From UHGV virus genome UHGV-0038495: a stretch of DNA of 64,000 nt, one strand, 5' to 3'. Positions within the stretch are counted from its first letter, which is position 1; every line of letters starts with the position of its first letter. This DNA is from a virus. The notes below the pieces were generated by a model. The model worked only from the letters and a program-made list of their open reading frames with translations. It ran no database searches and was not told the DNA's origin. The position numbers and the translations under genes are program-made. This document shows positions 4,163 to 62,260 of this stretch, one piece after another.

Positions 4163-4238
4163 TAAATTCTCCTTTATTATTTTTGTTAATTTATTATATC
4201 ATATTTTTTATATTATTAATAATTAATGCTTATGGTTT

Positions 4239-13122: not shown

Positions 13123-13506
13123 ATACTTTACTCTCTTTCTTTAAAACTAAAATAAGATATATAATAAATAAATTATTATATATCTTATATATATTATTAT
13201 ATAATATATTATTTATATATTATATATATTATTTAGATTTATGATCTTTACTCTACATACACTTTTCTTTTTTGTTTTTCTTTCTTTGTTTTCTTTATTA
13301 TACCATATTTTTTTTCATTTTCCAAATATTTTGAGAATTATTTTTAGCACAGTAATTTGGATTTTCAATTTTCAAAGAATTAAATTGCCTTTTATCAATT
13401 CAATCAAATAATTTTTAATTGAAATGAACACTTTATCACCTCACTTATTTTTATGTTCAGACGACTAAAAATAAATTAGTCTCTGAACATATTTTTTAAT
13501 AAGGAA

Positions 13507-15765
13507 TTAATCTTTTTTTATAATAACAAGTTTATCTATCGCGCGAGTTACTGCGGTATAAAGCCAGCGTTTATGTTCTTCATTTTCGAATGGGAATCCT
13601 TCCTCTATAACAAGGACCTTATCGAACTGGCTACCTTGCGATTTATGGGTCGTGATCACATACCCATAAGCTACGTCATTGGGAAGAGGGCTGTGAAACC
13701 GCTTATTTTTTCTTAACTTATATAAATCCTGCCCAGTTAAAATAGAAGTTCCTGTAGCTAACATCTGTTTCTCAACAATAACATCACGAATAATATCATC
13801 ATTATCTAATCTTAAATCTACTTTATAACAAGGAATAATTCTTTCAGATTCAGATTCTTTTAACCAATAAGGTAAAACAACTTCATATTCTCTAATATTT
13901 TCAACAGTTCCTATCGTACCATTTGTTAAACTTGCTTCTTCACTATCAGAGACTTTATCATCATAATTATGTAAACAAATAAGTCTTTCACCCGGAACTA
14001 ACAACTTGTCTGAATACCCAAGTTGCTTACGCACATTGTTATTATAAGCTATTCTTTTTTTATTAGTTGCGCATAATGTAACATCAGCCCACGTCAACAT
14101 ACCTTCAGTCAAATCCGCCGCATTAAATATTTGTACTTCTTTCCCATGAAATTCTTTTAAAGACTCACCTTCTCGAATTTGCATAGAGACCTGTATTATT
14201 TCACTTTCTTTTGCCTGTCTCATTATCTCATCTAAGAATACATGAGGATGATCTAAGAGATGATTATCATCATTCTTAGAGATTGGAGGTAGCTGTCCGG
14301 GGTCTCCGCAGCATATAAGATAAACAGGATACGAGAGCAAGTCCTGAATCATCTTAGTTGGGACCATAGATACTTCATCTATTACTATAACCTTTGGACC
14401 CAACTCTTTTCTCTTTGTTCTCATATAAGTGCCATTAGGCATTTGTGTGTTATAGTACAAGAGCTTATGAAGTGTAGTTGCGCCTGGATTGCCTTTGTCT
14501 TTTAAAACCTGCGCGGCTTTACCTGTAAATGCACAGTAAGCTACGTCCATTTCATCTAAGTCTAGGGCTGCTATAATAAAATTAACTACAGTGGTATTAT
14601 GAGTAACTATAAAGTCATTTGTAAGATATAAATGCTCTTCATTATCAACATAAATACATATCATTTCTGTACTATAATTTTCTTTTATTATTTCTACTAT
14701 TGAATTCTTATTATAATTTTTATTCTTAATGTAATTCTTAGCCTTTATAGCTATTTCTTTTTTACGAGGTAATCTAAATAATTTATATTTTTCTTCATTT
14801 GGTATATTAATATTTAAATTATAGCATTTTCCAGTGCTATATTTATTACTTCTTTTATCTTCTGTAATGGTTGAGCTATAACTTAAAGATTGTAAAACTT
14901 CTTTTACATCTAAAATTAACTGTAAACTTGTAGACGTATATCGAATATTAAATCTATTATTACTTTCTGTAATAGACCCATCTGTATCTAGTATACCTTG
15001 TAATAAACTTAAACGCTGTTCTATTGACCCCCTTTTATAAATTTCAGGAATTCTTTTATCTTGAGCTGCACAACAAATTTCTTCTTGAAATTCACTAAAA
15101 AATTGATTTGTTTGAAATTTTAAAGTAGTCCAACCATTTCCTTCTATTGGGGCTGGAAGTAAAAAAGTCCAATTATAATTATCCACAGAATTTTTTTCTA
15201 CATCCTTTGCGCCGATTAAATCTTTTATAAAAATTGGAATTTGTTCGTTTTCAGAAGATATAGTTAATTGTCTTTGCTTACAACAACCATCTCCTAGAAA
15301 AGCACCAATAACATACGGGTCTATTTTATAATCTTGTTTTTCATACTGTACGGGTAAATTATTTGGCACAGCATATTTAAAACCTGCCGAATTAGTTAAA
15401 CCTTTGTTAAGAAGTTCTTCTGTCGTTAAAGTCTGCTTCTGATTTTTCTTATTTAAAACTGTCCATAAATGGTCTCCCGCGCACTGAGTTTCTCTTTTGT
15501 CTTTTAACTTTAAAGTATAGACTTTTTTTTCTCCTTGAGGATAAATTCCCATAACTTTTGTAGGTAATCCTTTTCTATCAAAGACATAATCTCCTATTTT
15601 TAATTCTCCTATTTTTCTCCAACCATTAGGAGTAGGGACCATCGTATCTATAGGCTGTGCTTTGCCTGCACCTGCATACCCAGATATCACGGTCATTTTC
15701 TCTCCGTCTCGATACCTTTTAACGGCTATTTTAACCGCTTCTTTCTGCTTTGCTGTTAATTCCAT
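13507..15765 (-). CDS. RecD/Dda-like SF1 helicase interrupted by a LAGLIDADG intein
   Basis: N-extein ...VISGYAGAGK. C-extein TTVVNFIIAA...AYCAFTGKAAQVL...ATTLHKLL...VIVIDEVSMV...GDPGQLPP (helicase motifs I, Ia, II, III). The removed 355 aa restores the GAGKTT P-loop. Confidence 0.8.
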   Translation of the reverse strand: MELTAKQKEAVKIAVKRYRDGEKMTVISGYAGAGKAQPIDTMVPTPNGWRKIGELKIGDYVFDRKGLPTKVMGIYPQGEKKVYTLKLKDKRETQCAGDHLWTVLNKKNQKQTLTTEELLNKGLTNSAGFKYAVPNNLPVQYEKQDYKIDPYVIGAFLGDGCCKQRQLTISSENEQIPIFIKDLIGAKDVEKNSVDNYNWTFLLPAPIEGNGWTTLKFQTNQFFSEFQEEICCAAQDKRIPEIYKRGSIEQRLSLLQGILDTDGSITESNNRFNIRYTSTSLQLILDVKEVLQSLSYSSTITEDKRSNKYSTGKCYNLNINIPNEEKYKLFRLPRKKEIAIKAKNYIKNKNYNKNSIVEIIKENYSTEMICIYVDNEEHLYLTNDFIVTHNTTVVNFIIAALDLDEMDVAYCAFTGKAAQVLKDKGNPGATTLHKLLYYNTQMPNGTYMRTKRKELGPKVIVIDEVSMVPTKMIQDLLSYPVYLICCGDPGQLPPISKNDDNHLLDHPHVFLDEIMRQAKESEIIQVSMQIREGESLKEFHGKEVQIFNAADLTEGMLTWADVTLCATNKKRIAYNNNVRKQLGYSDKLLVPGERLICLHNYDDKVSDSEEASLTNGTIGTVENIREYEVVLPYWLKESESERIIPCYKVDLRLDNDDIIRDVIVEKQMLATGTSILTGQDLYKLRKNKRFHSPLPNDVAYGYVITTHKSQGSQFDKVLVIEEGFPFENEEHKRWLYTAVTRAIDKLVIIKKD
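14596..15660 (-). mobile_element. Intein (Hint domain plus LAGLIDADG homing endonuclease) inside the helicase P-loop
   Basis: Block A-like start AQPIDTMVPTPNGWRKIGELKIGDYV. Block B ..AGDHLWT. Two LAGLIDADG motifs (YVIGAFLGDG and LLQGILDTDGSI). C-terminal FIVTHN followed by +1 Thr. The first intein residue is Ala rather than Cys or Ser. Confidence 0.7.
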
Positions 15766-15893
15766 TCCTTTTTCTCCTTTTAACTTTTCTAATATTCTTT
15801 TTATTTCTTATTTATATTTTATCATATTTTTTATTTTCTTTAAAAATAGAACAAAAAAACAGGAAAATCTACTAGAGACTTTCCTGTTCTTTA

Positions 15894-16721
15894 TTAATTT
15901 ACGAAATAATTATATGCAGCTCGCGCATTTGCTTGACGCTTACTACAAGTACCAAAAGAACCTCTACCATAAGCATATAAATATGCTTTAGCAGCTTCTT
16001 CTGGTGAAGTTAAATTACAAAAGTCTTTATAAGTAAAGCCAGACTTATATAATCTACCATAGGTATTGAAATTTGATTCAAGTGTATTTGCTAAATAATT
16101 TAACTGAACAAGCGTGGACGCGCCATGAATACCATAGGACTTACTCCATTGACATAACCCGTAGTATTTTCCCGTAGGATTATATACATAAGGGTTTAAA
16201 TCTAAAGTTCCGCCGCCACATTCTTGCATCATGTTACCAAGTATTCCAGCTGTAACCGCGTCATTATATCCCTTAGACTTTAAAAAAGCCCAAACCTCGC
16301 CTGCAACAGGAGAAGAAGAAATCTTAGCATACATCTTTTTACCTTCTTCTATTTTCTTCTGTTCAGCATATTTATTTTCATAATGTTGTTTCGCGCTTTT
16401 TGCTTGAGCATATTCATCTTGTGCCAGTTGAATTACAGCATGTTCTTCATCATAAGATAAATTTCTTGCAGCTTCAGCCATATCATGCGCGTCATCCATT
16501 CGTTTCTGACTTTCTTGAATTAAACTATTTAATTTATTTAAATCAGTAGTTTCAACAATCGCATAAGACGCGGAAAGAGGTTTAGGATCTTCAGTCTCAG
16601 CTGTATCTGCATGAGCCCTAATTCCTATGACCGCTATGGCGGCTGCCGCGACTAAACCTATAATAATTATATTCTTTGTTTTCATAATGTTGTTCTTCCT
16701 TTCTCTTGTTTCTAGTAACAA
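15894..16721 (-). CDS. Membrane-anchored coiled-coil protein with C-terminal GH73-like (glucosaminidase/lysozyme-like) domain
   Basis: N-terminal transmembrane/signal segment IIIIGLVAAAAIAVIGI. C-terminal AGILGNMMQECGGGTLDLNP...GLCQW...YLYAYGRG, resembling the A.ESG.G catalytic region of FlgJ/AcmA-type hydrolases. Confidence 0.45.
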   Translation of the reverse strand: MLLETRERKNNIMKTKNIIIIGLVAAAAIAVIGIRAHADTAETEDPKPLSASYAIVETTDLNKLNSLIQESQKRMDDAHDMAEAARNLSYDEEHAVIQLAQDEYAQAKSAKQHYENKYAEQKKIEEGKKMYAKISSSPVAGEVWAFLKSKGYNDAVTAGILGNMMQECGGGTLDLNPYVYNPTGKYYGLCQWSKSYGIHGASTLVQLNYLANTLESNFNTYGRLYKSGFTYKDFCNLTSPEEAAKAYLYAYGRGSFGTCSKRQANARAAYNYFVN

Positions 16722-16845
16722 CTATAAGACAAGAGCCGTTGTTTGGGCATTATGAAATAGCTTGTGCTTACTATTCCATTTTAATTAATCATAATTATAC
16801 CATATTTTTCATTATTAACGACTCTTTTTCATTCAGAACTCTTTC

Positions 16846-22137: not shown

Positions 22138-22305
22138 TTTTGTCTATTCTCCTTTCCTTTATATTATAACAAATTTTAAATAAAAACACAAATAGGGTTA
22201 TAAGAAGTAAATCTTATAACCCTAAAATTGGTTTAAAAATTTGTTAAATCACTTTTTGTTTCTGGGGACGGGTTCTACGACCGCTTGCCGCCCAAGGACA
22301 GAAAC

Positions 22306-24477: not shown

Positions 24478-24849
24478 TTATTCTTCAGTAAACATCTGAG
24501 TCGTATCTACTGCTATGCCCAGTTCTGTTAATACATAAGCAGGAGGTGTAGAACCTTCAACCTTTGTAATATATCCCTTTGTTATTAACTTTCTTGTGCC
24601 ACCAGATGCTGTTCTGCCTGTAACTTCAAAACCAGCTATTGTGCTAACTGCTTCACCAAGCATCTTTGCAGTAAACTCACAGTCTGGGTCTGCCTGCATC
24701 GCGGCAAGTATTCTATATCCAAGTTCCGTAATCTCAGGAACTTCCTTTTCTTTCTTATTCTTGATTGTTTCAAAATACTTAACGGCTTCCTCTGGAGCCT
24801 GTGTCATCATTGGTTCAACATAATTAATAAATACTTCTCTGTTAGTCAT
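24478..24849 (-). CDS. hypothetical protein, possible winged-helix
   Basis: GRTASGGTRKLITKGYITK resembles a MarR-type recognition wing. Weak. Confidence 0.3.
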   Translation of the reverse strand: MTNREVFINYVEPMMTQAPEEAVKYFETIKNKKEKEVPEITELGYRILAAMQADPDCEFTAKMLGEAVSTIAGFEVTGRTASGGTRKLITKGYITKVEGSTPPAYVLTELGIAVDTTQMFTEE

Positions 24850-24926
24850 AGTTATTTCTCCTTTTTTAATTTCTTTAGTAATTCAAATGACTCATTAATT
24901 ATAACAAATTTTTTCTGACTTTCAAA

Positions 24927-25205
24927 TTAATCAACCGCTAATGTGTAGCCGTCCAAATAACCCGGTGCGCAATAGCGAGCAAATAATTCAAGGTCATCTA
25001 TAAGATAATGCTTATCTTCAAATTCTTCTTCATTCTGCAAAAGAAAAGAATAAGTATAAACCTTAATATCTTTATATCCCATAAGTAATGCTTTCATGTA
25101 AATATCCTGCGGATTTGCAGCAAAAATAGGTAAACCGCGGATTGCAGCAAACTCAATAAGTTCCTGCGTCTTTCCAGAACCTCTGCCATTAATAATTCTC
25201 TTCAT
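24927..25205 (-). CDS. hypothetical protein
   Basis: ORF on the coding strand. GRGSGKTQ near the N-terminus. Confidence 0.3.
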   Translation of the reverse strand: MKRIINGRGSGKTQELIEFAAIRGLPIFAANPQDIYMKALLMGYKDIKVYTYSFLLQNEEEFEDKHYLIDDLELFARYCAPGYLDGYTLAVD

Positions 25206-25573
25206 TAATAACCCTCGCTTTCTTTATTAATAAACCGCTGATAGTATTAATTCAATTTCTTCTTCTGATAACTTAAAATTCCATCTTAAAAAATCTTCTA
25301 CTTCATCTTCTTCAATATCTCCTTCTTCTAACACAGTTCTTGCAGTTTCTACCACTTTATCCAAATATTCGCAGCGCGCAGCATACATCATTTCATCACT
25401 ATTCATCTTTAAGTTTTACTCCTTCTTCTTCTAAAACTCTCCTTACCATTTCACTGTCAATGATTGACATTCTATTACTTTCAGCAACTGCTACGCGCCA
25501 TGCCAAAGTTTCAATAATATCAATCATTTCTTCTCTTGTCATAAAATCAATCTTTTTCATTTATTCGTTCCTC

Positions 25574-25617
25574 AACTTTCTATAATTATTATAACAAAAT
25601 TTTTTGAGTTTTTGAAG
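25574..25617 (-). promoter_or_regulatory. Conserved sigma-A-type promoter cassette (TTCAAA-N17-TGTTATAAT)
   Basis: Minus-strand reading is cTTCAAAaactcaaaaaattttgTTATAATaattatagaaagtt, followed by GAGGAA and ATG of an unlisted 52-aa ORF. Confidence 0.55.
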
Positions 25618-25625
25618 TTCATATC

Positions 25626-26546
25626 TTAGCGCGAGCCGCTAACAGTATTAAATCCAGATGCAACAGAGTCATAAAAATCAATCCAATAAGATTCTAAATC
25701 AGCAAGTTCATTAACATTACCAGTTTGTAAAATCTCAAATGTAAAGTTCTCAACACCAAGAGTAAACAAAGTATTATAGAACGGCGCCGTTCCCTTAGAC
25801 GCCCTTAATCCACATCTTATGTGCTGACGGAATCGTTCTGCAATATCTACACTACGTCCTATGTAACATCTACCATCAGGAATATAAGTTATCTTATAAA
25901 TACCTAAAACTCTATCAGAACCAACAACTCTGTCTATCATTTCTCCTGTTAAACTTTGATAATATTCTTTCCAAATAAGTTTATATAAAACATCCGGATT
26001 TTTTAATTCTAAAGCTAAATTTTTAAGCTTCTCTATATCATTCAAATTTGCAATAGGAACACAAACACGATGATAATCGCGGTCGGCATGTTCTTTTTCA
26101 GCTAATTTGCGTGCAGTATTAGCAGCTTTTATTTTCGCGCGCTCCTCGCTTAAAGTTCTTTTTGCCTGGTTTAATTCTTCTACAATCTTACCTGCATCGG
26201 TTGCATACTCAGCGCGCATCCTATCTAACATTTCTTTTTGCTTTTCCTCTTGCTCAATTTCTAATTGCGCGAGCCTTTCTTTATTTTGCTGTCTTTGCGC
26301 GTCTAACTTACCAGATTCGAATAATAGGTTTTTTGAAAGTTCATCTTGTTCTTTTGTTAGTTCATCAACTTTTTCTTTACCTTTTGCAATTAAATCTTCT
26401 ATATCTTTATAAGTAGTTTTTTTACTTTCTAATTCATTATTCATTAAAGTTATATTGTGATGAATTTTTTTAGCTTTTTTATTTAAAAAATAAAACCACG
26501 CGCCAGTTGCCATTGCAAATAAAATACTAAATATTGTTCCCGCCAT
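25626..26546 (-). CDS. Transmembrane, coiled-coil protein with C-terminal GIY-YIG nuclease domain
   Basis: N-terminal transmembrane segment IFSILFAMATGAWFYFL. About 150 aa of heptad-rich E/K/Q sequence. C-terminal GIYKITYIPDGRCYIGRSVDIAERFRQH...E (GIY-10 to 11 residues-YIG, with Arg, His and Glu). Confidence 0.6.
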   Translation of the reverse strand: MAGTIFSILFAMATGAWFYFLNKKAKKIHHNITLMNNELESKKTTYKDIEDLIAKGKEKVDELTKEQDELSKNLLFESGKLDAQRQQNKERLAQLEIEQEEKQKEMLDRMRAEYATDAGKIVEELNQAKRTLSEERAKIKAANTARKLAEKEHADRDYHRVCVPIANLNDIEKLKNLALELKNPDVLYKLIWKEYYQSLTGEMIDRVVGSDRVLGIYKITYIPDGRCYIGRSVDIAERFRQHIRCGLRASKGTAPFYNTLFTLGVENFTFEILQTGNVNELADLESYWIDFYDSVASGFNTVSGSR

Positions 26547-26617: not shown

Positions 26618-26902
26618 TTATTCAGCTGGAGCTGCTTCAAGGTCGTGTGCAAGTCCATCTTCGTTCATTCTCAGGAATTTAACTTCCTTTTCAGTACCAT
26701 CAGACATCTTAACCTTAGCAGGCTCTCTGAAGCCATATTTATTCTGACCCTTTACGTCAATACACATAGTAAATACACCATTTACCTGTCTTACTGAAAG
26801 ACCAGTTTCCTCAGCGATATCTGCCGCAGTAACCTTTTCACCTGCGATTTCATGCTGCTTAATTGCGTTAAAAATTTCCTTAGTTGTAGCCTTTACTGCC
26901 AT
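26618..26902 (-). CDS. Small HTH-containing protein
   Basis: TAADIAEETGLSVRQVNGVF helix-turn-helix. Confidence 0.4.
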   Translation of the reverse strand: MAVKATTKEIFNAIKQHEIAGEKVTAADIAEETGLSVRQVNGVFTMCIDVKGQNKYGFREPAKVKMSDGTEKEVKFLRMNEDGLAHDLEAAPAE

Positions 26903-26972
26903 AATTATTTTCTCCTTTTTAATTAAAAATTTAATGATTTATTGTATAAACATTATATCAAAAGTTTTTATA

Positions 26973-27158
26973 TTAAGCAAAACTTTTCGACATTTTTTCT
27001 TGGATAATTTCATCGAGTTTGATAAAGTCGTAGGCGGTCAGACCTTCGCATAATTCCTCTATCTTTTTCTCCGCATGAGCAAGTTCAACTTTACTGTGTG
27101 AACTGGTAAGAATTTGTTCATACTTAATGATATTATCTGCGATTTCTTGAAGAGTCAT
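26973..27158 (-). CDS. hypothetical small protein
   Basis: ORF on the coding strand. Confidence 0.3.
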   Translation of the reverse strand: MTLQEIADNIIKYEQILTSSHSKVELAHAEKKIEELCEGLTAYDFIKLDEIIQEKMSKSFA

Positions 27159-27246
27159 ATCTTTTTTCTCTCTCCTTAACTTTGTATATTTATTATATCA
27201 AAATTTTTAAGAGCAGTAAACTATTTTTACTGCTCTTTTACTGTGT

Positions 27247-28400: not shown

Positions 28401-30734
28401 CTATATTTTACTAACACTTTTAATATTTCCACTTTCTACTAACTTATTACCTTTGCTTCCACGATCAAGTGTTGGTAATTCTTTAGCAGGTATTACTATA
28501 TTATTTCTCGCGCAAGAGAAAAGAAGAATATCATCATCTGAAACCATCGCGGCGCCAGCTATCTTAGAGTCCGAATATCTAAGTCCCTTCCCGCCACGCG
28601 ACTGCTGGCGCATTTCTTCTTTACATTTATAACCATAACCATTTTCATTTGCTATTGCAAGCTTATCATTATTATCTCTAACTATAAGCGCGGAAACAAT
28701 ATAATCATCTTTGGTTAATTCTATACCCTTTACACCTATAGTTAATTTACCCATTGGTCTAACTTCTGAGGAAGGAATTCTAATTCCGATACCGTTTTTA
28801 GTTAATAAGATTATATCTTCATCATTTAATAAAGTAACTGCTATAAGTTCATCATTGTCCTTAATCTTAATAGCGGCAATACCTTTCTTACGTCTTGTAG
28901 AAGTATATTCTGAAAGTAAAGACTTCTTTAAAATACCATTCTTGGTTACAAACAGCACATATTCAAAGTTGCTATCATCTGATAATGAATAAATAGTTGC
29001 AACCTTTTCATTAAAGTCCATACCAACTAACATTGCAAGACTTGTACCGCGCGCAGTATTAGTTCCTTCCGGAATATCATTAACTTCTATTTTATATAAC
29101 TTGCCTAAAGAAGAGAATACCAACAATGAATCAACTGTATTAGTTCTAATAGTTATTTTTGTTATATCTTCCTGTGACTTAACGCCTTTTCCGCCACGGT
29201 GCTGTACTTTATAAGAAGATGTTGGAATCCTCTTAATATTTCCAGTTTCAGTTAATACTACCATACAAGGTACTGGTGCGGGCTTTGGTTTAATTGTTTT
29301 CTTTCCTTTTGTAGTAGGCTCTTCAATATCTAATAATTCTGTGCGTCTTGCATCACCATATTTCTTTACTATTGTGTCAAGTCTTGTAATTAATTCTTCT
29401 ATCTGTTTGTCTTTATTGTTTATTAATATATTTAAGCTTTCAATAGAATTTAATAATGCTTTGTATTCATCATTTAAAGCAATTTTTTCAAGATTAGCTA
29501 AGCTACCTAATCTCATACCTACAATCGCTTTTGCTTGATTTTCTGTAAAGTTATACTGAGATATTAAATTATCTTTAGCATCTGCACTACTCTTAGATTT
29601 TTTAATTAAAGCTATAATATTATCAATATCTTCAAGCGCACGCAGTAAACCTTCTAGTATTTCCTGTCTTGCTTTTGCTTTTGCTAAATCAAATTCAGCT
29701 TCTCTTTTAATACAAGAAGTATTATGATTAATATATATTTCAATACACTGCTTTAAATTTAATTCTGTCGGTGTCTTACCCACAAGAGCAACTTGATTAT
29801 AAGATATAGAAGTCTGTAAAGAAGTTTTTTCAAATAGAAGTTTAGCTATATAGTTTGGGTCAGCAGTTTTCTTACATTCAATAACTACTCTAACACCTTT
29901 TTTATTAGTTTCGTCACGAACATCTGAAACTCCTTCAATTTCCTTCTTGTCGCAAACCGCACCAATTTCATTCATTATCTTTTCTATTGAAACGCCATAA
30001 GGTATTTCATAAAAAACAATGTTATTTTTCTCAATTTTATAGCGCCCACGCAGCCTTACACTACCATGACCTGTTGCCATAATCTTTGGAATATCTCTTG
30101 TATTAATAACTATCCCGCCTGTAGGAAAATCTGGACCTGGAAGAGTTGGCTCTTCACCTTTAAGATACATTTTAATAGCTTCAGATACTTCAGTCAAGTT
30201 ATGTGGTAACCACGATGTAGCTATCGCAACCCCGATACCTGAGTTAGGATTACACAAGAGGTTAGGAAAAATGGAAGGTAAATCTACCGGTTCTTCTAAT
30301 GTTTCATCATAATTTGGTTTAAAATCAACATTCTTCTTTTTAATATTTACAAGTAAACCATCTTCTGAAATTTTGCTAAGGCGCGCTTCGGTATAACGAC
30401 TCGCAGCTGGACCATCGCCCGACTGCGTGCCATTAGACCCGTGCCAATCTATAAGAGGATATCTAAGCACCCAATTCTGAGATAAACGAACCATTGCGCC
30501 ATATATAGAACTATCTCCATGAGGATGATACTGACCCATAGTGTTTCCAACAATTCTCGCACTCTTTACGTGAGGTTTAGAGTATGTATACCCAGATTCA
30601 TGAGCTGACCATAATATTCTGCGCGCGACTGGTTTAAGACCGTCGGTCGCGCTTGGGATACTTCTATCTGTATTACAAGCTACAGCATACTCAATAAAGT
30701 TCTTCTTTAATTCATTTTGTACATCATTAAACAC
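28401..30734 (-). CDS. Type IIA topoisomerase, A subunit (T4 gp52/GyrA-like)
   Basis: GLKPVARRILW, YHPHGDSSIYGAMVRLSQ, active-site AASRYTEARL. Confidence 0.85.
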   Translation of the reverse strand: MFNDVQNELKKNFIEYAVACNTDRSIPSATDGLKPVARRILWSAHESGYTYSKPHVKSARIVGNTMGQYHPHGDSSIYGAMVRLSQNWVLRYPLIDWHGSNGTQSGDGPAASRYTEARLSKISEDGLLVNIKKKNVDFKPNYDETLEEPVDLPSIFPNLLCNPNSGIGVAIATSWLPHNLTEVSEAIKMYLKGEEPTLPGPDFPTGGIVINTRDIPKIMATGHGSVRLRGRYKIEKNNIVFYEIPYGVSIEKIMNEIGAVCDKKEIEGVSDVRDETNKKGVRVVIECKKTADPNYIAKLLFEKTSLQTSISYNQVALVGKTPTELNLKQCIEIYINHNTSCIKREAEFDLAKAKARQEILEGLLRALEDIDNIIALIKKSKSSADAKDNLISQYNFTENQAKAIVGMRLGSLANLEKIALNDEYKALLNSIESLNILINNKDKQIEELITRLDTIVKKYGDARRTELLDIEEPTTKGKKTIKPKPAPVPCMVVLTETGNIKRIPTSSYKVQHRGGKGVKSQEDITKITIRTNTVDSLLVFSSLGKLYKIEVNDIPEGTNTARGTSLAMLVGMDFNEKVATIYSLSDDSNFEYVLFVTKNGILKKSLLSEYTSTRRKKGIAAIKIKDNDELIAVTLLNDEDIILLTKNGIGIRIPSSEVRPMGKLTIGVKGIELTKDDYIVSALIVRDNNDKLAIANENGYGYKCKEEMRQQSRGGKGLRYSDSKIAGAAMVSDDDILLFSCARNNIVIPAKELPTLDRGSKGNKLVESGNIKSVSKI

Positions 30735-32636
30735 TTATATATCACCTTCCGCTTCTTCTGAATGATTCTTAATGTATTCTTTTCTTGGAATTGAACTTGT
30801 TCCCATCAAATCATCAAAAAGTTTATTTGTACCTTCTATATCTTCTACAGTTATCTGTTTTATTATTCTATTCGCGGGATCGGTTAAAGTCTCTTCGGTC
30901 TCGTCTGCCGACATTTCGCCCAAGCCTTTGAGTCGGTTCACTAGGTACTTTCCCTTAGGATTAGCTTCTCGGAACTTTTCCAATTCCGCATCATTCTTTA
31001 AGTATTTATATTCTTTACCTATAGTAATTTTATAAAGAGGCGGAACCCCTGCATATATGTAACCTTCAGATATAAGTTCCGGGCAGAAGGTCCAGATAAA
31101 AGTGTAAAAGAGGTTCTTTATGTGACTTCCATCTATATCTCCATCACTCATTATAATGATTTTCCCGTAACGCAAGTCCTCTGAGCGGTAAGTCACCTTC
31201 ATGGTCTTAACATCTATAGTTAAACCAAATGCTTCTATCATAGTCATAATTTCTGCATTCTTCTGAATCTGCTCTAAAGTCGCTTTTCTAGTATTAAGAA
31301 TTTTACCTCGTACCGGAAGGACAGCCTGAAACTCATTATCACGAGCTAACTTAATGTTCCCAGAAGCAGAGTCGCCCTCTACGATATAGATTTCGCACTT
31401 TTTTCTATCCTTGGAATAACAATCAGCCAGCTTCGAGTCAAATTTAAGAACCTTTTCCTTTTTCTTTTTATCAATCGCGCGTGCTGCATCTCGCGCTTTT
31501 TTTGCTGCTTCGCGCGCTTTTCTTGCTCCTATTGCTTTATCTGCAATTATCTTAACTTCTTTTTCATTAGCATGTAACCAATAATTTAAGGCTTCCGCAA
31601 AAGGAGAGGTAAAAGGTTTCATATCTATCTTAGAGACCCTTGACTTAACCTGAGCATCATAAGCCACGCCCGCGCAAGTTAAATTGAAAACAAAATATAA
31701 ACCTTCATTTATATCATCTCCACTTAAATTTTCGTCTTTTTCTTTTAACCATTTCTTTTCCTTAAAGAACTTATTCATTTCTCTTGTAAAAATGGTTTTT
31801 AACTGTGTTATATGCTGTCCACTTTCAGTTAAACCTGCATTTACATATGGTACAATAGTAGAAGAATAATTAGATGTATAAGTTAAAACTAAATCTAACT
31901 TATTTTTACCATCGGTATAATTCATTGCAAATCTATTGTTAATAATCTCTTTATCTTTAATTGCGGCGTCCAGTAAATCTGAGATACCATTCTTAGAATG
32001 ATACTTAATAACTGGTTTATCATCTATATATAAATTAATAGTTAAACCGGGGCAGAGCGCAGCTAAAGTCTTAAATAGGTCTTTTACCTTATTAATTTCA
32101 ACTTCTGTATGAGTAAAAAATTCTTCGCTTGGCGTCCATGTTACTGTAGTACCATGAAGAGTCTTATCAACCTGTTTAACTTCTCTCTTATCAAACACAC
32201 CTTCAACAAAATCAATCTTTTCACTTAAGCCATCGCGGAAAGTGGTTACGGTCAAAGAGTGAGATAAGAAGGTCGCTAACTTAGACCCTATACCGTAACT
32301 TCCTAATGAAGTCCCCTCATAGCTACCATCTTCACGATATTTACCACTAGTATTAAGTACCGAAAATGCAGCTTCAAGGATTGTTTTGCCATCATCACGA
32401 AAAGAATTAGGTATAAAACCCTGACCTTCATCTATGACCGTAACTTTAGATTTATCTATACTAACTTCTATCATAGACCCATGTCCTGCGCGGAATTCAT
32501 CAATAGAGTTAGATATAATCTCTATTAAGAGTTGAGTCGAATACTCACAATCGCCTACATAGACCTGTGGTCTAAGTCTTGTAAATTCAAGAGGTGAAAG
32601 TGATTCAATAGATTTTTCATCGTATAACTTTCCCAA
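30735..32636 (-). CDS. Type IIA topoisomerase, B subunit (ATPase plus TOPRIM; T4 gp39/GyrB-like)
   Basis: GHKL ATPase region. TOPRIM IYIVEGDSASG. PVRGKILN. Stop abuts the A-subunit start. Confidence 0.85.
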   Translation of the reverse strand: MGKLYDEKSIESLSPLEFTRLRPQVYVGDCEYSTQLLIEIISNSIDEFRAGHGSMIEVSIDKSKVTVIDEGQGFIPNSFRDDGKTILEAAFSVLNTSGKYREDGSYEGTSLGSYGIGSKLATFLSHSLTVTTFRDGLSEKIDFVEGVFDKREVKQVDKTLHGTTVTWTPSEEFFTHTEVEINKVKDLFKTLAALCPGLTINLYIDDKPVIKYHSKNGISDLLDAAIKDKEIINNRFAMNYTDGKNKLDLVLTYTSNYSSTIVPYVNAGLTESGQHITQLKTIFTREMNKFFKEKKWLKEKDENLSGDDINEGLYFVFNLTCAGVAYDAQVKSRVSKIDMKPFTSPFAEALNYWLHANEKEVKIIADKAIGARKAREAAKKARDAARAIDKKKKEKVLKFDSKLADCYSKDRKKCEIYIVEGDSASGNIKLARDNEFQAVLPVRGKILNTRKATLEQIQKNAEIMTMIEAFGLTIDVKTMKVTYRSEDLRYGKIIIMSDGDIDGSHIKNLFYTFIWTFCPELISEGYIYAGVPPLYKITIGKEYKYLKNDAELEKFREANPKGKYLVNRLKGLGEMSADETEETLTDPANRIIKQITVEDIEGTNKLFDDLMGTSSIPRKEYIKNHSEEAEGDI

Positions 32637-32864: not shown

Positions 32865-33064
32865 TAGTTTAACCGTCCTTTCACATATTCCAATAAAGTT
32901 TCTAACGCGTGAACCTGCTCTGTTAAAAAAATAGCAAAATCAGTTCCCTTTGCCTCTTTCTTTATTAACTGTTTATCTGTATCTATAATAGATTCAACTA
33001 TTTTAACTGCCTGCATAATCGTCATTTTTATCACCTCTCATTTCATATATATTATAACAAAATT

Positions 33065-33571
33065 TTAAAGGTTTTTATAATATTCTTCCAATATCTCATA
33101 CGACTTAAAAACATCCTCAGATTTGAGCAATTTTTCAAGTTTCTGAGTGTTTTTTGAGGCAAGAGCATCACATAATTCGTTGTCAAGAACACCATTATGA
33201 CCTTTGACCTTGATTACATCGCAAGAGCAAAGGAATGAAAGGTCGTAAAGTTCCTTAACTAAATCTAAATTTTCAACGCGCGCGCCCTTGCTTCGAGTCC
33301 AGTCAGCTCTAGCCCATTTGAACATCCAGTCATTATAAAGATTTACGACGTAGGCTGAGTCACTATAAATCGGAACCGCGAATAAATTTTCACTGCGCGC
33401 CCACTTTAAAGCTTCTATTAGAGCTTTCATTTCCATTCTATTATTTGTAGTATTTTCTTCATAATCAAACCAATACCAAACAATTCCTTTTTCATTGTCT
33501 CTTGCTATCGCGGCAGCGCCTCCTGGTCCAGGGTTTGGAGCTGCGCTTCCATCTGTATATATTTCAATCAT
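33065..33571 (-). CDS. RNase H (RNase HI-like)
   Basis: IYTDGS....GPGG, TNNRMEMKALIEAL, IYSDS. Confidence 0.8.
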   Translation of the reverse strand: MIEIYTDGSAAPNPGPGGAAAIARDNEKGIVWYWFDYEENTTNNRMEMKALIEALKWARSENLFAVPIYSDSAYVVNLYNDWMFKWARADWTRSKGARVENLDLVKELYDLSFLCSCDVIKVKGHNGVLDNELCDALASKNTQKLEKLLKSEDVFKSYEILEEYYKNL

Positions 33572-33763
33572 TTAATTTTCCTCGCATCGTATACAATCAA
33601 TATTAATGACATTAATAAGATTGTTTGTTATATGTTCATCTTGCCAATCGACAATATAAGAGAGTAAATCTGCTACATTTTCTGCATATTTACAAATATC
33701 TTGATTTTTACAATGGTCGCATTTAATAAATAACATTTTTTGATGAATCACTTTCTGTGCCAA
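33572..33763 (-). CDS. Small Cys-rich protein (CxxC...CK[YF] / DCxxCEEN family)
   Basis: CDHCKNQDICKY ... IDCIRCEEN. Paralog of the next two ORFs. Confidence 0.4.
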   Translation of the reverse strand: MAQKVIHQKMLFIKCDHCKNQDICKYAENVADLLSYIVDWQDEHITNNLINVINIDCIRCEEN

Positions 33764-34046
33764 CTACAGGAGAAGTTCCGCTATAAAACTTTACAGGACT
33801 TGATTCTATATTTTTATCTATATATGATTTATTTTTATTTTCCTCACAATGACAAATATCAACACTAATTATATGTAATTTATTTTTATTTTCTTCGCAA
33901 CCCTGGCAATCAATATCAATATTAATTATATCGTCTGCTTCATAACTCTCTATCCAATCGTTCGTATAAAGCTGTAATTTTCTTAAAGGTTCTATAAATT
34001 TACAAAATTTTTTATGGTTACAATGTTCACATTTATTAAAATTCAT
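33723..34046 (-). CDS. Small Cys-rich protein (same family, duplicated CxxCEEN module)
   Basis: CEHCNHKKFCKF ... IDCQGCEEN ... ICHCEEN. Confidence 0.4.
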   Translation of the reverse strand: MNFNKCEHCNHKKFCKFIEPLRKLQLYTNDWIESYEADDIINIDIDCQGCEENKNKLHIISVDICHCEENKNKSYIDKNIESSPVKFYSGTSPVVGTESDSSKNVIY

Positions 34047-34262
34047 TTATCTTAATAACACCTCACTTATAGGGTTTAGCTCATTTAATTTAGAAGTTCT
34101 TATCTCGGAATAGACTTGCTTCGGTTCAAAATAAATACATTTTAAAGTAATCGTATAAATAGGTGAATTACCCTTTAATTCATTGACCTTATTTTCTATA
34201 TCTGTAATTTCCGAAATATACTTACAAATAGATACATTTTTACATTTAGAACAATATTCCAT
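34047..34262 (-). CDS. Small Cys-rich protein (same family)
   Basis: CSKCKNVSICKY. Confidence 0.4.
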   Translation of the reverse strand: MEYCSKCKNVSICKYISEITDIENKVNELKGNSPIYTITLKCIYFEPKQVYSEIRTSKLNELNPISEVLLR

Positions 34263-34408
34263 TTTTCACTCCTTTTACTTTCTTCATTAACTTATATAAA
34301 TATTATAACAAATTTTTTATAAGAATGATAATTTATACGTATAACTTCTTAAAAAAGTCAGAATAATAAAAAAAAGAGGAAAATCTATTGAAAGATTTTC
34401 CTCTTTTT

Positions 34409-35603: not shown

Positions 35604-36533
35604 TTATTTAATAGTTTTATATAAAATCCAATCTAAATTAAGATTATCTTTGATTAAATCATAATTCAAATCTTCTCTATTCTTATGCGCTATATTAAAC
35701 TCTGGTTTATATTTATTAATAAGAATAGCTTCTAATAAGTCTAATTCTTTTTTAGAGCCGCAAGTTGTATAGTATATTTCGCCTTTAAAATTATATAATT
35801 TATCTTGAGTATGCTGCTGGACTCTTCTTTTTAGAGAAATTGTCTGTCCAATATAAACAATATTGTCATTAGATACATATTTATATAAATAAAAATTATC
35901 ATTAGAAATATTAGAAACTTCTTCCAAAGAGTTAGGATTTTCATAAAAAGTAAAAGTTTTAGTTGTTTTATCTAAAATAAGAAAACCTTTGTTTATAAGT
36001 TCTTTGAGAACAGTTCTATATGTTGTATGAGAAAAATTACATTTATCAAGAATATCTTTTGTACTTAATGGTTGAGAAAGTTGAGAACTTAAAGAAGAAA
36101 AATAACACCATGCTTTGAATTCATTAGCAGATAATATTTTCATAGCATAGAACATTGCTTGATAAGAAAAAACAATGTTCTGAACATTTTCTTCTTTATT
36201 TATACAAATACTTCTTTGATTTGGCACTTTCTTTGTAATAATATTAAAAGGATCTTCATAAAAATTCCAAATTTTCATTCGTTTTTCTATAGTACTTTCA
36301 GAAGTTTCTTTTAAAAACCCTTTTTCAATCAGCTCTTTAATCGCTTTATTATATTTATATTCAGTTAATCCAGAATTTTTATTAGATAAAGCAAAATCAG
36401 TTGATTGATTCTTAATATAAGAATATAAAACAAATCCTTCAGGAGAAAGACTATTTAAAATTACACTTATATCTTTTATTTCTCCTCTTATAATTCTTAT
36501 AAATTTTTGGTTGTTGAAATTTGTTGTAGCCAT
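35604..36533 (-). CDS. GIY-YIG endonuclease with N-terminal winged-helix repeats (free-standing homing-endonuclease-like)
   Basis: C-terminal FYLYKYVSNDNIVYIGQTISLKRRVQQH....E. Two KxIKELIxKGFL wHTH-like repeats in the N-terminal half. Confidence 0.55.
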   Translation of the reverse strand: MATTNFNNQKFIRIIRGEIKDISVILNSLSPEGFVLYSYIKNQSTDFALSNKNSGLTEYKYNKAIKELIEKGFLKETSESTIEKRMKIWNFYEDPFNIITKKVPNQRSICINKEENVQNIVFSYQAMFYAMKILSANEFKAWCYFSSLSSQLSQPLSTKDILDKCNFSHTTYRTVLKELINKGFLILDKTTKTFTFYENPNSLEEVSNISNDNFYLYKYVSNDNIVYIGQTISLKRRVQQHTQDKLYNFKGEIYYTTCGSKKELDLLEAILINKYKPEFNIAHKNREDLNYDLIKDNLNLDWILYKTIK

Positions 36534-36846: not shown

Positions 36847-37317
36847 TTATTCATTGACCTTAATATTTTTACTACGGCGGGCGCGCACTTTATCATATAG
36901 ATCTGTTTTACTCTCTATATACTCCTTTAATTCTTTTCTCATTACCGTAACCTCTTCATTAATAAACTTTATTTCATCTCTACAGCGATTTGCTGCGCGA
37001 TAAATCATATAACCATTCTTATCTTTTTCTTCTTTTGCATTAACTCCATTCTCTAAATGCTCAAGAATCTTTAACTGCTGACTAAGCTCTATGTCTCTTA
37101 TCCAAGTAAGATAATTAATCATAGCTCTTGTTTCTGCAATAGCAAGACCGGTCTTTTCAGAACAAAACTCCATATCTTCAGGCGCGCACTGTGCTGTGCC
37201 TATAAAAACATTATCTGCAACACAAATAGTTACTGAAGCAAAGCCATCCTCATCAAACTGATACTCTTTCTTAATTCTTCTAATGTCTAACATTCTGTTT
37301 CCTTTCATTAATATCAT
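36847..37317 (-). CDS. hypothetical protein
   Basis: ORF on the coding strand. Last gene of the kinase/phosphoesterase operon. Confidence 0.35.
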   Translation of the reverse strand: MILMKGNRMLDIRRIKKEYQFDEDGFASVTICVADNVFIGTAQCAPEDMEFCSEKTGLAIAETRAMINYLTWIRDIELSQQLKILEHLENGVNAKEEKDKNGYMIYRAANRCRDEIKFINEEVTVMRKELKEYIESKTDLYDKVRARRSKNIKVNE

Positions 37318-37822: not shown

Positions 37823-37845
37823 AATTTATACCTCCTCTCTTTTTT

Positions 37846-38687: not shown

Positions 38688-38691
38688 TCAC

Positions 38692-38735
38692 ACTTTCTAT
38701 AATAATTATAACAAAAAATTTACTGTTTTTGAAAA
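38692..38735 (-). promoter_or_regulatory. Conserved promoter cassette copy, followed by an 18-nt perfect palindrome
   Basis: Minus-strand reading TTTTCAAAAACAGTAAATTTTTTGTTATAATTATTATAGAAAGTG. Downstream lies TTGCTATtgcATAGCAA (38670..38688), then the ribosome-binding site of the 38687 gene. Confidence 0.5.
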
Positions 38736-38771
38736 TAGAAAAAGTCCTACTGTTAAGTAGGACTTAATTTA

Positions 38772-40094: not shown

Positions 40095-40098
40095 TATA

Positions 40099-41686: not shown

Positions 41687-41730
41687 AACTTTCTATAATT
41701 ATTATAACAAATTTTTTTGAGATTTTGAAA
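41687..41730 (-). promoter_or_regulatory. Conserved promoter cassette copy
   Basis: aactttctataattattataacaaatttttttgagattttgaaa (plus strand). Minus-strand reading gives TTCAAA-N17-TGTTATAAT. Confidence 0.5.
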
Positions 41731-43659: not shown

Positions 43660-43701
43660 AACTTTATAATTATTATAACAAAATTTTTTGAGTTTTTGAA
43701 G
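43660..43701 (-). promoter_or_regulatory. Conserved promoter cassette copy
   Basis: actttataattattataacaaaattttttgagtttttgaag. Confidence 0.5.
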
Positions 43702-45024: not shown

Positions 45025-45089
45025 TTTTTTTCTCCTTTTCTTTTTTTTCTATAATTATTATAGCAAATTTTTTTAAAAAATTTTAATAG

Positions 45090-46893: not shown

Positions 46894-47013
46894 ATTCTAC
46901 CACTTTCCTTTTTTCTTTTTTAACTTTCTTTCTTTTAATATATTATAACATAAATTTTACTGTTTCCAAATTTACTATAAAAAAAAAGGCTACCTTTCAA
47001 AGTAGCCTTTATA

Positions 47014-52312: not shown

Positions 52313-52314
52313 AT

Positions 52315-52950: not shown

Positions 52951-52954
52951 ATGT

Positions 52955-53861: not shown

Positions 53862-53905
53862 TTTATTACATATTTATTATAACAAAATTTTTTATATTTG
53901 TAAAA
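53862..53905 (-). promoter_or_regulatory. Promoter cassette copy upstream of the tRNA cluster (first of two tandem copies)
   Basis: ttattacatatttattataacaaaattttttatatttg. The same 30-nt core recurs at 53966..54008. Confidence 0.45.
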
Positions 53906-53965
53906 AGCGAAGAGTAGGATTTTAATATTTTAAGTATTATAATAAAGGAACTCTTTGTGCTTTTA

Positions 53966-54008
53966 TTACATATTTATTATAACAAAATTTTTGAAGTTTT
54001 TAAACAAA
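53966..54008 (-). promoter_or_regulatory. Promoter cassette copy upstream of the tRNA cluster (second tandem copy)
   Basis: ttattacatatttattataacaaaatttttgaagtttt. Confidence 0.45.
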
Positions 54009-54176: not shown

Positions 54177-54220
54177 AACTTTCTATAATTATTATAACAA
54201 AATTTTTATTATTTTTCAAT
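54177..54220 (-). promoter_or_regulatory. Conserved promoter cassette copy
   Basis: aactttctataattattataacaaaatttttattatttttcaa. Confidence 0.5.
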
Positions 54221-54913: not shown

Positions 54914-55094
54914 GTTATTTTCCTTTTATTTTTCTTTCTATAATTATTATAGCAAAATTTTTAAAGTTTTAAAAATGAGAGAATTTTGGTTGACGGTATT
55001 CACAGGTTTCTCTCAGAACCACCGGTAAAGTAATCTCTCAACCTTACAAATATATTATATCAAAAATTTTAAAGTTTTTGCAATAGAAAACAAA

Positions 55095-55337: not shown

Positions 55338-55470
55338 CTAAATAGATTCTGAAATTACTATCTTCATACGTAAATAATATCTGTTTTAGTTATTATATTA
55401 ACTCCTTACCAGTGAATATGTAAGTAATGAGCTTCTATTTCACACTTGTATCCCTACTCAATGAGAATCT

Positions 55471-57014: not shown

Positions 57015-57071
57015 CCTCAACTTTCTATAATTATTATAACAAATTTTTTGAGAATTTGAAAGTCGGAGCCG
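57015..57071 (-). promoter_or_regulatory. Promoter cassette copy (long variant, near-identical to 61935..61991)
   Basis: caactttctataattattataacaaattttttgagaatttgaaagtcgga. Confidence 0.5.
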
Positions 57072-57995: not shown

Positions 57996-58071
57996 ATTTA
58001 TTGTTCCTTTCTACTGTGATTTTTAATCACCTTTAACTTACAAATATATTATAACAAAAAATTTATTGTTT

Positions 58072-58854
58072 TTAATCTGAGAGAATATCTTTCATTTTTT
58101 CTGCAATAGCCGCAACAGAAGAACAGAAATTACAAGGCTTATTCTCAGTAATACAAGCCAATTTACAGTTCCTGCGCCTGACTCCAAATTCATTATATAT
58201 TAAACAATTATTCGCGCGCGGCATACGAGGTCCGAGCATCTCAAGGTCAAAAAACCATTCTCCATTAAAATAGATTTTTGTGAGCGTTTTTTCTATAGTT
58301 ATATTGTTTACATGTGAGAAATCAATCGTCTTAAAAACATCCTCATATAAGTCAATATCTTCCGGTCTAATAAAGCAAGATTCTAACTTATCTTCCGCAC
58401 TTAAAATTGGTGAGCATCTAAGCTCAACCATACTTGCAAAAGGAAGTAAATCATCATGCGATAAAAGAAGCGCGCCAGCCACTCCGACTGAAATAACGCC
58501 CATAGAGATATATCGCTCTATATCTTTGATACTTATGGCAGGCGCCGCGCAATAAAACTTGTTTGTAACTTTTCTATTGTTTTTAAAAAATACCTCTGCT
58601 TTCTGAGGCGTGTCAAAGCGCAAAGGTACTATCTCAGCAAAATCCGCGAGTAATTTTGTATCTTCTTCATTAAGCGGATTCTGCGGGCAGTCGAGTGTGA
58701 ACCTAATCTTAGGGTACGTCGTCATAAAGTCAGGCAACTTACGGCGACTGCGCCATGGCACTATAACTTCTCTCACCAAATGAGAGTCTAAATTTTTTCT
58801 ATCTTTCTTTTTCTTTGGAAGATTAATACAAAAAGTAATCTTCTTATTCGTCAT
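58072..58854 (-). CDS. hypothetical protein
   Basis: 260-aa ORF with C-terminal Cys cluster (CKLACITENKPCNFC). Confidence 0.4.
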   Translation of the reverse strand: MTNKKITFCINLPKKKKDRKNLDSHLVREVIVPWRSRRKLPDFMTTYPKIRFTLDCPQNPLNEEDTKLLADFAEIVPLRFDTPQKAEVFFKNNRKVTNKFYCAAPAISIKDIERYISMGVISVGVAGALLLSHDDLLPFASMVELRCSPILSAEDKLESCFIRPEDIDLYEDVFKTIDFSHVNNITIEKTLTKIYFNGEWFFDLEMLGPRMPRANNCLIYNEFGVRRRNCKLACITENKPCNFCSSVAAIAEKMKDILSD

Positions 58855-60154: not shown

Positions 60155-60232
60155 TCTGTCATAAGCCTTCCTTTAATTATTAATTTATTTTATACAAATA
60201 TTATAACAAGTTTTTTAAAAAATTTGAAAAAG

Positions 60233-61934: not shown

Positions 61935-61991
61935 TTCCTTTAACTTATATATATATTATAACAAATTTTTTTGAGAATTTGAAAGTCGGAA
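61935..61991 (-). promoter_or_regulatory. Promoter cassette copy (long variant)
   Basis: ttataacaaatttttttgagaatttgaaagtcgga. Confidence 0.5.
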
Positions 61992-62033: not shown

Positions 62034-62228
62034 ATAAGGAGTAAGCATTATATGTATATTAAAGGCGCTGCGCGCCTTGGTTTATGTTATATTATCATAT
62101 ATTTATTAATAATATAAATATTTATAATATATTAATATAATATATTATATTATATATTTATTATCTAGGTCTTTCCTCTTAATCCTCCACACACTTTTGG
62201 CTTTTTTGTTTTTGTTTTTTCTGTAAGA

Positions 62229-62260
62229 AAATTATAACACAAATTTTTTGTTTGTCAAAT
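62229..62260 (-). promoter_or_regulatory. Promoter copy with perfect TTGACA -35 and TGTGTTATAAT extended -10
   Basis: Minus strand gaTTTGACAaacaaaaaatttgtgTTATAATttt. Confidence 0.5.

Follow-up and report, generated by a model that had tools for sequence, protein, structure and literature searches.

Repeated promoter cassettes, probably read by host RNA polymerase, in the early and replication arm of an uncultured SPbeta-related phage

What reads a promoter-like cassette that recurs in one orientation before unit after unit of a phage genome, and why is it conserved over so great a length? The question is raised by a 64,000-nt stretch of the UHGV virus genome UHGV-0038495 (the window, meaning this whole stretch), in which 22 copies of such a cassette lie on the minus strand, among them the flagged copy at 25574-25617. 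An original prediction, made from the letters of the window, took the conservation past the -10 element into the +1 region to be more than RNA polymerase (RNAP) needs, and proposed an additional shared factor or a leader function. Here we find it probable that the cassettes are strong promoters read by the host RNAP with its primary sigma factor (sigma-A/sigma-70 type). Repeated host-type early promoters are a well-known phage arrangement that involves no new mechanism, and the conserved blocks all map to known elements read by RNAP.

Anatomy and statistics of the cassette

The flagged plus-strand sequence was confirmed letter for letter at 25574-25617, and all 22 of the start positions first listed match real copies, every one oriented with the minus-strand genes. 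The assignment to a sigma-70/sigma-A promoter family whose members have a TG extended -10 also holds. Numbered from the first T of TATAAT, the transcribed-strand consensus is TTyAAAAAC(t/c)..AAAAAtTTTGTTATAAT AwwTATR.AA, with the blocks in the order TTyAAA, a 17-nt spacer ending AAAAAtTTTG, TATAAT, AwwTA, T-R-N, and a leader rich in purines that carries a Shine-Dalgarno sequence. The TTCAAA and TATAAT elements of the original prediction are retained, and its N17 before TGTTATAAT is corrected to TTCAAA-N14-TGT-TATAAT, with 17 nt from TTCAAA to TATAAT; its copy with a perfect TTGACA (62236) is real, with a spacer that measures 16 nt.

TATAAT is exact in all 22 copies, as are the T at -3 and the G at -2 (TGnTATAAT), and TTTG is present in 20-21 of them. 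At the -35, the two T residues are kept in 21/22 and 18/22 copies at 17-nt spacing and are followed by an A-run, usually giving 4/6 matches to TTGACA. The -35 G (position -21) occurs in 3/22 copies against 4.4 expected from strand composition, so that this position looks unselected, not specifically recognised. Downstream, every copy has a purine at +12 (7 nt past the final T of the -10), and a YRY/YRR triplet centred there is found in 19/22 (background 23%). Purines make up 50-100% of the 16 nt that follow, depending on the copy, with a fraction of at least 0.69 in 19 of the 22 (strand average 57%).

In 17 copies the predicted leader runs for 19-56 nt, usually 19-46, into a strong Shine-Dalgarno sequence; the other copies precede tRNA or non-coding units. 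A typical 21-nt leader is predicted to be unstructured. The proposed leader function stands in part, in that the conserved AGAAAGTTRAGG is the start of a short unstructured purine-rich 5' untranslated region with a Shine-Dalgarno sequence. RNA structure or covariation in the +1 block was rejected, the standard leader being unstructured and Rfam giving only the five tRNAs. An intrinsic-terminator hairpin with a T-run lies at most 45 nt upstream of 8 of the 22 copies and a ninth overlaps the -35, leaving 13 copies without one. A 13-nt palindrome, TATAATAATTATA, is present in 8 copies.

With a log-odds weight matrix covering -24..+16 around TATAAT, 25 minus-strand sites reach at least 15 bits, comprising the 22 listed copies and weaker sites at 15821, 13302 and 4198; the plus strand has none. 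Thirty second-order Markov simulations gave a mean of 0.1 sites of at least 10 bits, and none at 12 or 15 bits. A looser IUPAC search returned 17 matches against 0.08 expected, and the summed information content of the family is ∼35 bits. The motif is not as frequent within open reading frames (ORFs) or in the opposite orientation as before the genes, since all copies are intergenic and the plus strand holds no match of at least 15 bits; the sole call of a copy in an ORF rests on a spurious 42-aa GTG ORF. Between 22.0 and 62.5 kb, 17 of the 26 intergenic gaps of at least 45 nt hold one cassette or more. A generic sigma-70 scan (102 sites, 94 expected) is uninformative in such AT-rich DNA, and singles out the cassettes only via TG-containing matches at 10-11 of 12 positions. 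A search of the literature for the literal sequence TTTGTTATAAT returned nothing relevant.

These features may be compared with the promoter analysis of Kuo et al. 2025 (PMC12641261), anchored on mapped start sites in 49 species. There, the spacer has two A/T tracts separated by a slightly GC-enriched region and closes with a G-rich end containing TG/TRTG, the -35 of Firmicutes is less conserved where an extended -10 is present, and the discriminator of Terrabacteria is AT- or AG-rich. A 3-bp 'start' element (YRY; YRR in Terrabacteria) centred 7-8 nt after the -10 fixes the start and raises promoter strength, and the initial transcribed region is AG-rich in Firmicutes. The cassette resembles extended -10 promoters of Firmicutes in its TATAAT, the TG at -15/-14, the 17-nt spacing and the weaker -35 accompanying the extended -10; in the A/T tracts around a slightly GC-enriched mid-spacer and the AT-rich discriminator; and in the Y-R-N centred 7 nt after the -10 and the purine-rich initial transcribed region. 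It differs in the -16 motif, which is TTTG and not TRTG, and in the absence of the G from most of its -35s. Compared with a typical cellular promoter set, conservation is far higher (about 35 bits; 22 near-consensus copies in 40 kb).

Extended -10 sigma-A promoters of Firmicutes were reportedly described by Graves & Rabinowitz (1986), Helmann (1995) and Voskuil & Chambliss (1998). For phages, a T4 early promoter consensus is said to have been derived by Wilkens & Rueger, and T5 promoters to have been studied by Gentz & Bujard (1985). These early promoters of T4 and T5, both lytic phages, are highly conserved, and the cassettes resemble them in being of the host-RNAP type, in their conservation into the spacer, +1 and downstream, and in their repetition in one orientation before early genes. 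Unlike the T4 and T5 consensus, which is specific to E. coli RNAP, the cassettes have an extended -10 and an AG-rich leader that are typical of Firmicutes.

Each copy would be a complete expression unit, often with an intrinsic terminator upstream. Host RNAP would meet a weak -35 (TTyAAA) 17 nt from the -10, with a spacer composed of an A/T tract, a C/T position and an A5T4 tract; the weak -35 would be tolerable because of the TG extended -10 (TTTGnTATAAT). The perfect TATAAT would be followed by a 5-nt AT-rich discriminator, and a pyrimidine-purine-N triplet centred 7 nt after the -10 would fix the start at A or G. The short unstructured purine-rich leader would then supply the Shine-Dalgarno sequence. 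Two causes would account for the conserved length, namely selection for near-optimal RNAP-read elements together with a ribosome-binding leader, and common descent of the copies, with duplication and recombination between cassettes that would also yield gene-sized insertions or deletions (indels), as in the promoter-early stem-loop (PeSL) cassettes of T4-type phages.

Phage context, occurrence elsewhere and constraint in relatives

The window has a G+C content of 30-37% and a GC skew that is negative throughout, and its minus strand carries essentially all credible ORFs. The replication module is SPbeta-like and syntenic, with counterparts of YorF, YorG, YorH, YorI, YorJ, YorK and YorL: proteins of DnaB-type, RecJ-like, AAA_24/Sak4-like and primase-like character follow the gene order of SPbeta yorF to yorL, and the DnaE-type polymerase ORF has SPbeta YorL as its nearest protein relative (38.7% identity). 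Further genes encode both type II topoisomerase subunits, NrdD, an RNA ligase, a kinase, a phosphoesterase, RNase H and DNA ligase, and the window also encodes two GIY-YIG proteins, five tRNAs and many small ORFs without a family match. Megablast of 20 kb of the window found no DNA-level relative among 50,697 phage records (INPHARED), and close relatives with 85-95% identity are IMG/VR contigs, one 'Clostridium sp.' metagenome-assembled genome (MAG) and one 94.7-kb Logan contig. Relatives include IMGVR_UViG_3300045988_127377, the CAMGAZ01 contigs and Logan ERR7738938_1133. The source is an uncultured, large phage of at least 95 kb with a single transcription direction, and its host is probably a low-GC Clostridia-type Firmicute. 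From gene content and relatives together, the window is taken to be the arm of this low-GC-Firmicute phage that holds its early, nucleotide-metabolism and replication genes.

The same architecture is observed in other genomes. Other IMG/VR contigs hold at least 120 stretches with the pattern AAAWTTTGTTATAATAWWTAT, and at positions left free by the pattern these show TTGA at 17-nt spacing (G in 98/115), a purine at +12 (109/115) and A at +14/+15; at multi-copy loci, 98% of copies lie on one strand. The equivalent cassettes of other phages have the -35 G in about 95% of cases (TTGAyTTTT), and are T-rich after the TT where those of the window are A-rich. The exact 23-mer TTTGTTATAATAATTATAGAAAG, running from the -10 through the start, lies 20-45 nt upstream of the cellular genes for FtsW/RodA, transketolase and YajC in three Firmicutes MAGs. 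Because it precedes cellular genes there, host polymerase alone must be able to cope with it, and recurrence both in other viral contigs and before cellular genes means that a phage-specific extra factor is not needed. The claim that the +1 block exceeds the needs of RNAP is not supported, since the block consists of known RNAP-read elements and recurs in unrelated phages and before cellular genes.

Position-specific constraint was observed by comparing orthologous copies in close relatives. Changes are confined to positions -19, -15..-12, +6, +7 and +10 (41/216 comparisons); in the -35 TT and A-run, the A-tract, TTTG, TATAAT and +11..+15, changes amount to less than 1% of several hundred orthologue comparisons. 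From this pattern, the mid-spacer and part of the discriminator are free to vary, and the constrained positions are those expected to contact RNAP or to fix the start. The free drift of the discriminator positions +6, +7 and +10 also speaks against an extra shared factor at +1. TTCAAA is retained in two more distant relatives, L017 and L050.

Several points weigh against this interpretation. The cross-phage sets were picked by window-derived patterns, so that their constrained positions are biased. Orthologous cassettes are 93-99% identical, barely above other intergenic DNA (90-98%). Sigma region 4 may not recognise the upstream half, the -35 G being present in 3/22 copies here and in about 95% in other phages. 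The elements were judged against promoter features of Firmicutes in general, from which those of the host may differ. Activity and start site are predictions, as are host sigma-A use and early or middle timing. Only 1 of about 5 indels with respect to relatives is bounded by cassettes.

Historical spread and phage-encoded factors

The long conservation may be mainly historical, the promoter-leader cassette having spread by duplication, gene conversion and illegitimate or homologous recombination, with much hitch-hiking. We regard this reading, of a mobile regulatory cassette like PeSL, as a serious possibility just short of probable; it is complementary to host-read promoters and does not exclude them. 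PeSL cassettes are known from T4-type phages (Arbiol et al. 2010, PMC2839356; Comeau et al. 2014, PMC4122927). They provide the precedent for such spread. Like the array of the window, they are strong early promoters of sigma-70-like type that are repeated by the dozen, concentrated upstream of ORFans and closed by a Shine-Dalgarno sequence. PeSL cassettes often have a stem-loop terminator, and some indels between close relatives are flanked by two of them; the window shows the former for some copies and the latter for one indel. Within the window, the CTC at -15..-13 is unconstrained between orthologues and yet is common to 25593, 43677, 41706, 57038 and 61960. The copies 57038 and 61960, thought at first to be near-identical over ∼57 nt, are identical over ∼36-37 nt (TCCGAC to TATAATA) with one 1-nt indel, and diverge downstream of the -10, the identity continuing upstream of the -35 through TCCGAC. 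Because subfamilies share unconstrained bases, even upstream of the -35, common descent of copies within the genome is indicated. One indel has both ends in cassettes, comprising the gene 54248-54913 and one cassette that are present in the window and absent from the relatives L012 and L008, and a cassette-plus-leader tandem duplication (53981/53881) is single in relatives. Against a mainly historical account, the position-specific constraint between orthologues coincides with RNAP contact elements, the same consensus has arisen in unrelated phages where positions are unconstrained, and the copies have neither terminal inverted repeats nor target-site duplications. Most indels, at least three others among them, are not bounded by cassettes, so that a recombination role of the cassettes is suggested but not established. 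Differences from PeSL are the phage lineage (an SPbeta-like replication module and a Firmicutes host, not a T4-like myovirus), the hairpin, which in the window is a separate upstream terminator in 8-9/22 copies and is not embedded in the promoter, and the single clear cassette-bounded indel. In favour of spread is also the stable 10-bp leader hairpin described below, which is found with different cassettes in different relatives.

It is unlikely that the cassettes combine a promoter with a binding site for a phage regulator (repressor, activator or sigma appropriator) acting on all copies at once. Such a site would lie in the +1 block (the partial palindrome TATAAT-A-ATTATA) or in the upstream half TTCAAAAAC(T)C without the -35 G, on the model of the SPBRE/MrpR system of SPbeta or the MotA box of T4. 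The palindrome TATAATAATTATA in 8/22 copies would suit the former, although the +1 block occurs also in unrelated phages and before cellular genes, and drifts at +6, +7 and +10 in orthologous copies. The upstream half differs from that of other phages (-21 G in 3/22 as against about 95%; A-rich, not T-rich, after the TT), and TTCAAA is kept in L017 and L050; however, the -21 G count matches strand composition, and mid-spacer positions including the CTC vary between orthologues. That this upstream half, TTyAAAAAC(T)C, is the site of a phage factor (a MotA/AsiA-like sigma appropriator or a global temporal regulator) and not a degenerate -35 is quite improbable; if it were, the ∼22 units would form a phage-controlled middle regulon and not plain host-read early promoters. 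SPbeta, whose replication module is syntenic with that of the window, governs about 10 promoters via one repeated operator, SPBRE, which is bound by the master repressor MrpR/YopR (Kohm et al. 2023, PMC10516654). SPBRE is alike in being a short conserved element at about 10 SPbeta promoter regions, in a phage with YorF-YorL synteny to the window; it differs in being a separate element and not, as is the cassette of the window, a promoter in its own right. In SPbeta it was recovered as caaatAYAAAWAATATGTAT, and its place relative to promoters varies. Its 15-bp form with at most 2 mismatches occurs 11 times in the window (5.8 expected) and not at the cassettes as a class, so it is not enriched, and tblastn of YopR, YonR and AimR against the window, which is only part of the genome, gave no match better than E = 0.77. 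SPBRE/MrpR was therefore rejected, SPBRE being a distinct element that is not enriched here and no MrpR, YonR or AimR homologue being found in the window. Scans of the cassette-proximal small ORFs against Pfam and PHROG mostly gave no family, and so no regulator candidate.

A phage-encoded sigma factor or RNAP reading the cassettes is very improbable. SPbeta has its own RNAP, YonO, for its late genes, and this precedent, the weak -35, and a 378-aa multi-helix-turn-helix (multi-HTH) protein at 524-1660 with weak, sub-threshold matches to sigma-70 region 4 could be cited in its favour. The host-type TGnTATAAT is nevertheless perfect in 22/22 copies, an identical sequence stands before cellular housekeeping genes, and no RNAP or credible sigma factor was found in the window. 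The cassettes also drive the presumed earliest genes (ORFans, tRNAs, and nucleotide and DNA metabolism), for which a phage factor is unlikely because they need expression before any such factor exists. Two further candidates were rejected. A sigma-dependent pause at a second -10-like element, TATRNA at +9..+14, would require a final T where 21/22 copies have A, and an antisense promoter from TATAAT-A-ATTATA would apply to only 8/22 copies, with no conserved plus-strand -35 and no plus-strand genes. Host-read promoters of sigma-A type remain the preferred explanation, in a phage region of lytic style with some PeSL-like traits.

Individual copies, neighbouring genes and transcription units

The flagged cassette 25593 (25577..25617, minus strand, as are all units below) has the best score (47.6 bits), with cTTCAAA-17-TATAAT, the TG, an AATTA discriminator and a TAG start triplet, the predicted start lying near 25581; its 21-nt leader AGAAAGTTGAGGAACGAATAA runs to the ATG of a 53-aa ORF (25399-25560), and all 41 nt are identical in the relatives L003, L005 and L014. 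Just upstream of it ends the gene 25626-26546, encoding one of two proteins of about 306-309 aa with a C-terminal GIY-YIG domain. The other (35604-36533) also has winged-helix/HTH matches below the gathering cut-off, and on their domains both are likely homing endonucleases.

Cassettes between 54 and 62 kb precede proteins without a Pfam or PHROG family. Cassette 62236 (62220..62260), with TTGACA, a 16-nt spacer and TGTTATAAT, drives no gene but a ∼230-nt non-coding AT-repeat unit. Cassette 61960 (61944..61984; 43.6 bits) has a terminator hairpin 20 nt upstream and leads to a 179-aa ORF (61369-61908), and 60189..60229 (38.5 bits) leads to a 436-aa ORF (58844-60154) without a family match. Cassette 58053 (58037..58077; 34.3 bits) precedes a 174-aa ORF (57471-57995), and L012 has an 833-bp insertion just upstream of it. 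Cassette 57038 (57022..57062; 42.3 bits), with a terminator 26 nt upstream, precedes the small ORFs 56881-57006 and 56598-56894. Cassette 55059 (55043..55083; 38.9 bits, TGATATAAT) is followed by ∼75 nt of non-coding sequence with a T-run just before the next cassette. This ORF-free stretch (54972-55047) ends in UCUCUCAUUUU and is kept in L012 and L008. It may be a small RNA, but folds no better than shuffled sequence (z = -0.8) and has no Rfam match. The next cassette (54935..54975; 44.3 bits) precedes the 221-aa ORF 54248-54913 and forms the upstream edge of the cassette-bounded indel, of which 54180..54220 (43.9 bits), leading into a non-coding and tRNA block, forms the downstream edge. The junctions of the gene-sized indels at 33584-34252, 55307-56056 and 56591-56898 (with respect to L052, L012 and L008) lie not at cassettes but at the starts of genes or at short stretches of microhomology.

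Upstream of the tRNA cluster stands a tandem pair 100 nt apart, 53981 (53965..54005; 44.6 bits) and 53881 (53865..53905; 42.5 bits); L012 and L008 have a single copy in this place. The cluster itself (51867-54180; Thr-GGU, Ala-UGC, Lys-UUU, Gln-UUG, Ser-GCU) is preceded by three cassettes, with ∼740 nt free of ORFs between the last cassette and the first tRNA, and a 340-nt ORF-free gap (53030-53370) between tRNA-Thr and tRNA-Ala; Rfam gave no match in these two ORF-free stretches.

Further down the strand, 46931..46971 (27.8 bits; terminator 14 nt upstream) precedes a radical-SAM-like 411-aa ORF (45658-46893), 45046..45086 (34.7 bits, TGCTATAAT) a 143-aa ORF (44593-45024), and cassette 43677 (43661..43701; 43.4 bits) a 74-aa ORF (43412-43636). 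Cassettes 41706 (41690..41730; 46.7 bits) and 38710 (38694..38734; 40.0 bits), each with a terminator 8 nt upstream, serve an RNA-repair-like set (37280-41666). Downstream of 41706 are a nucleotidyltransferase-like ORF (40917-41666), a protein with an RNase_T-type exonuclease domain (40099-40917) and the 440-aa RNA ligase, and downstream of 38710 are the cREC_REC, kinase-like (AAA_33) and metallophosphoesterase genes. In its composition the set is reminiscent of phage tRNA-repair counter-defence. The leader of 38710 opens with a stable 10-bp hairpin, GUGAUUGCUAU-GCA-AUAGCAAUCA (38660-38692; z = -4.2), 6-8 nt past the predicted start. The same hairpin follows different cassettes in relatives (L012 ∼4730-4760, L008 ∼1700-1730, L017 ∼4580-4610), and so behaves as a movable leader module; it may be a 5' mRNA stabiliser.

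The cassette at 34291..34331 (36.7 bits; terminator 43 nt upstream) precedes small ORFs and then RNase H, and that at 33040..33080 (40.0 bits) two small ORFs and then the topoisomerase II subunits (30735-32636 and 28401-30734). Two variant copies carry TGATATAAT: 27181..27221 (34.9 bits), with a hairpin over its -35, precedes a 61-aa ORF (26973-27158), and 26941..26981 (28.8 bits) a 94-aa ORF (26618-26902). The copy at 24887..24927 (26.2 bits) has a TTGAAA -35, is without the TAT-R start block, and leads to a 123-aa ORF (24478-24849). A terminator abuts the -35 of the degenerate copy at 22152..22192 (20.0 bits), with which the promoters of the SPbeta-like replication module (YorH, DnaB, primase-like, RecJ) begin.

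A related second promoter variant, AAAAAATATGRTATAAT, serves the genes below 17 kb, and its units carry ATATGRTATAAT. It is found at 16799, where it was spotted by eye, and at 15821, 13302 and 4198, which were found by the matrix. The first (16783..16823, AAAAATATGGTATAAT) lies upstream of a lysozyme-domain ORF (15894-16685), and the second (15805..15845, ATATGATAAAAT, 15.2 bits) after a terminator and upstream of a helicase gene (13507-15765). From the third (13286..13326, AAAAAATATGGTATAAT, 15.0 bits) an AT-repeat non-coding unit would be transcribed, with the DnaE-type polymerase gene downstream of it, and the fourth (4182..4222, AAAAAATATGATATAAT, 24.0 bits) lies upstream of the ORF 3749-4162. 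Near the downstream end of the arm, the 378-aa protein of 524-1660 has matches to HTH_50, HTH_11 and HTH_23 and one to sigma-70 region 4 below threshold, and on these domains is possibly a transcription regulator.

The AT-repeat unit at 13118-13326 is paralogous to that at 61985-62260 (72% mean column identity). Both consist of a promoter, an A-rich leader ending AAAAGTGT.TG.AG, and ∼100 nt of pure A/T 'TATAAT/ATATTA' repeats. The unit at 61985-62260 closes with a GC hairpin and terminator, and that at 13118-13326 lies directly upstream of the DnaE-type polymerase gene. These units may be transcription-activated replication origins or other cis elements.

The main value of these results lies in the annotation of an uncultured SPbeta-related phage. 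The promoters define its transcription units, and two groups of genes are separated by promoter type: the main cassettes precede ORFans, tRNAs, RNA repair, topoisomerase and DNA ligase genes and the start of the replication module, and the variant promoters precede the lysozyme-domain ORF, the helicase, the DnaE-type polymerase and nucleotide-metabolism genes. The cassette is a near-optimal, compact promoter-plus-leader that is likely to be strong in low-GC Clostridia and could serve as a genetic part. It also adds, beyond the T4-like phages, a further case in which gene-sized indels coincide with repeated promoter cassettes.

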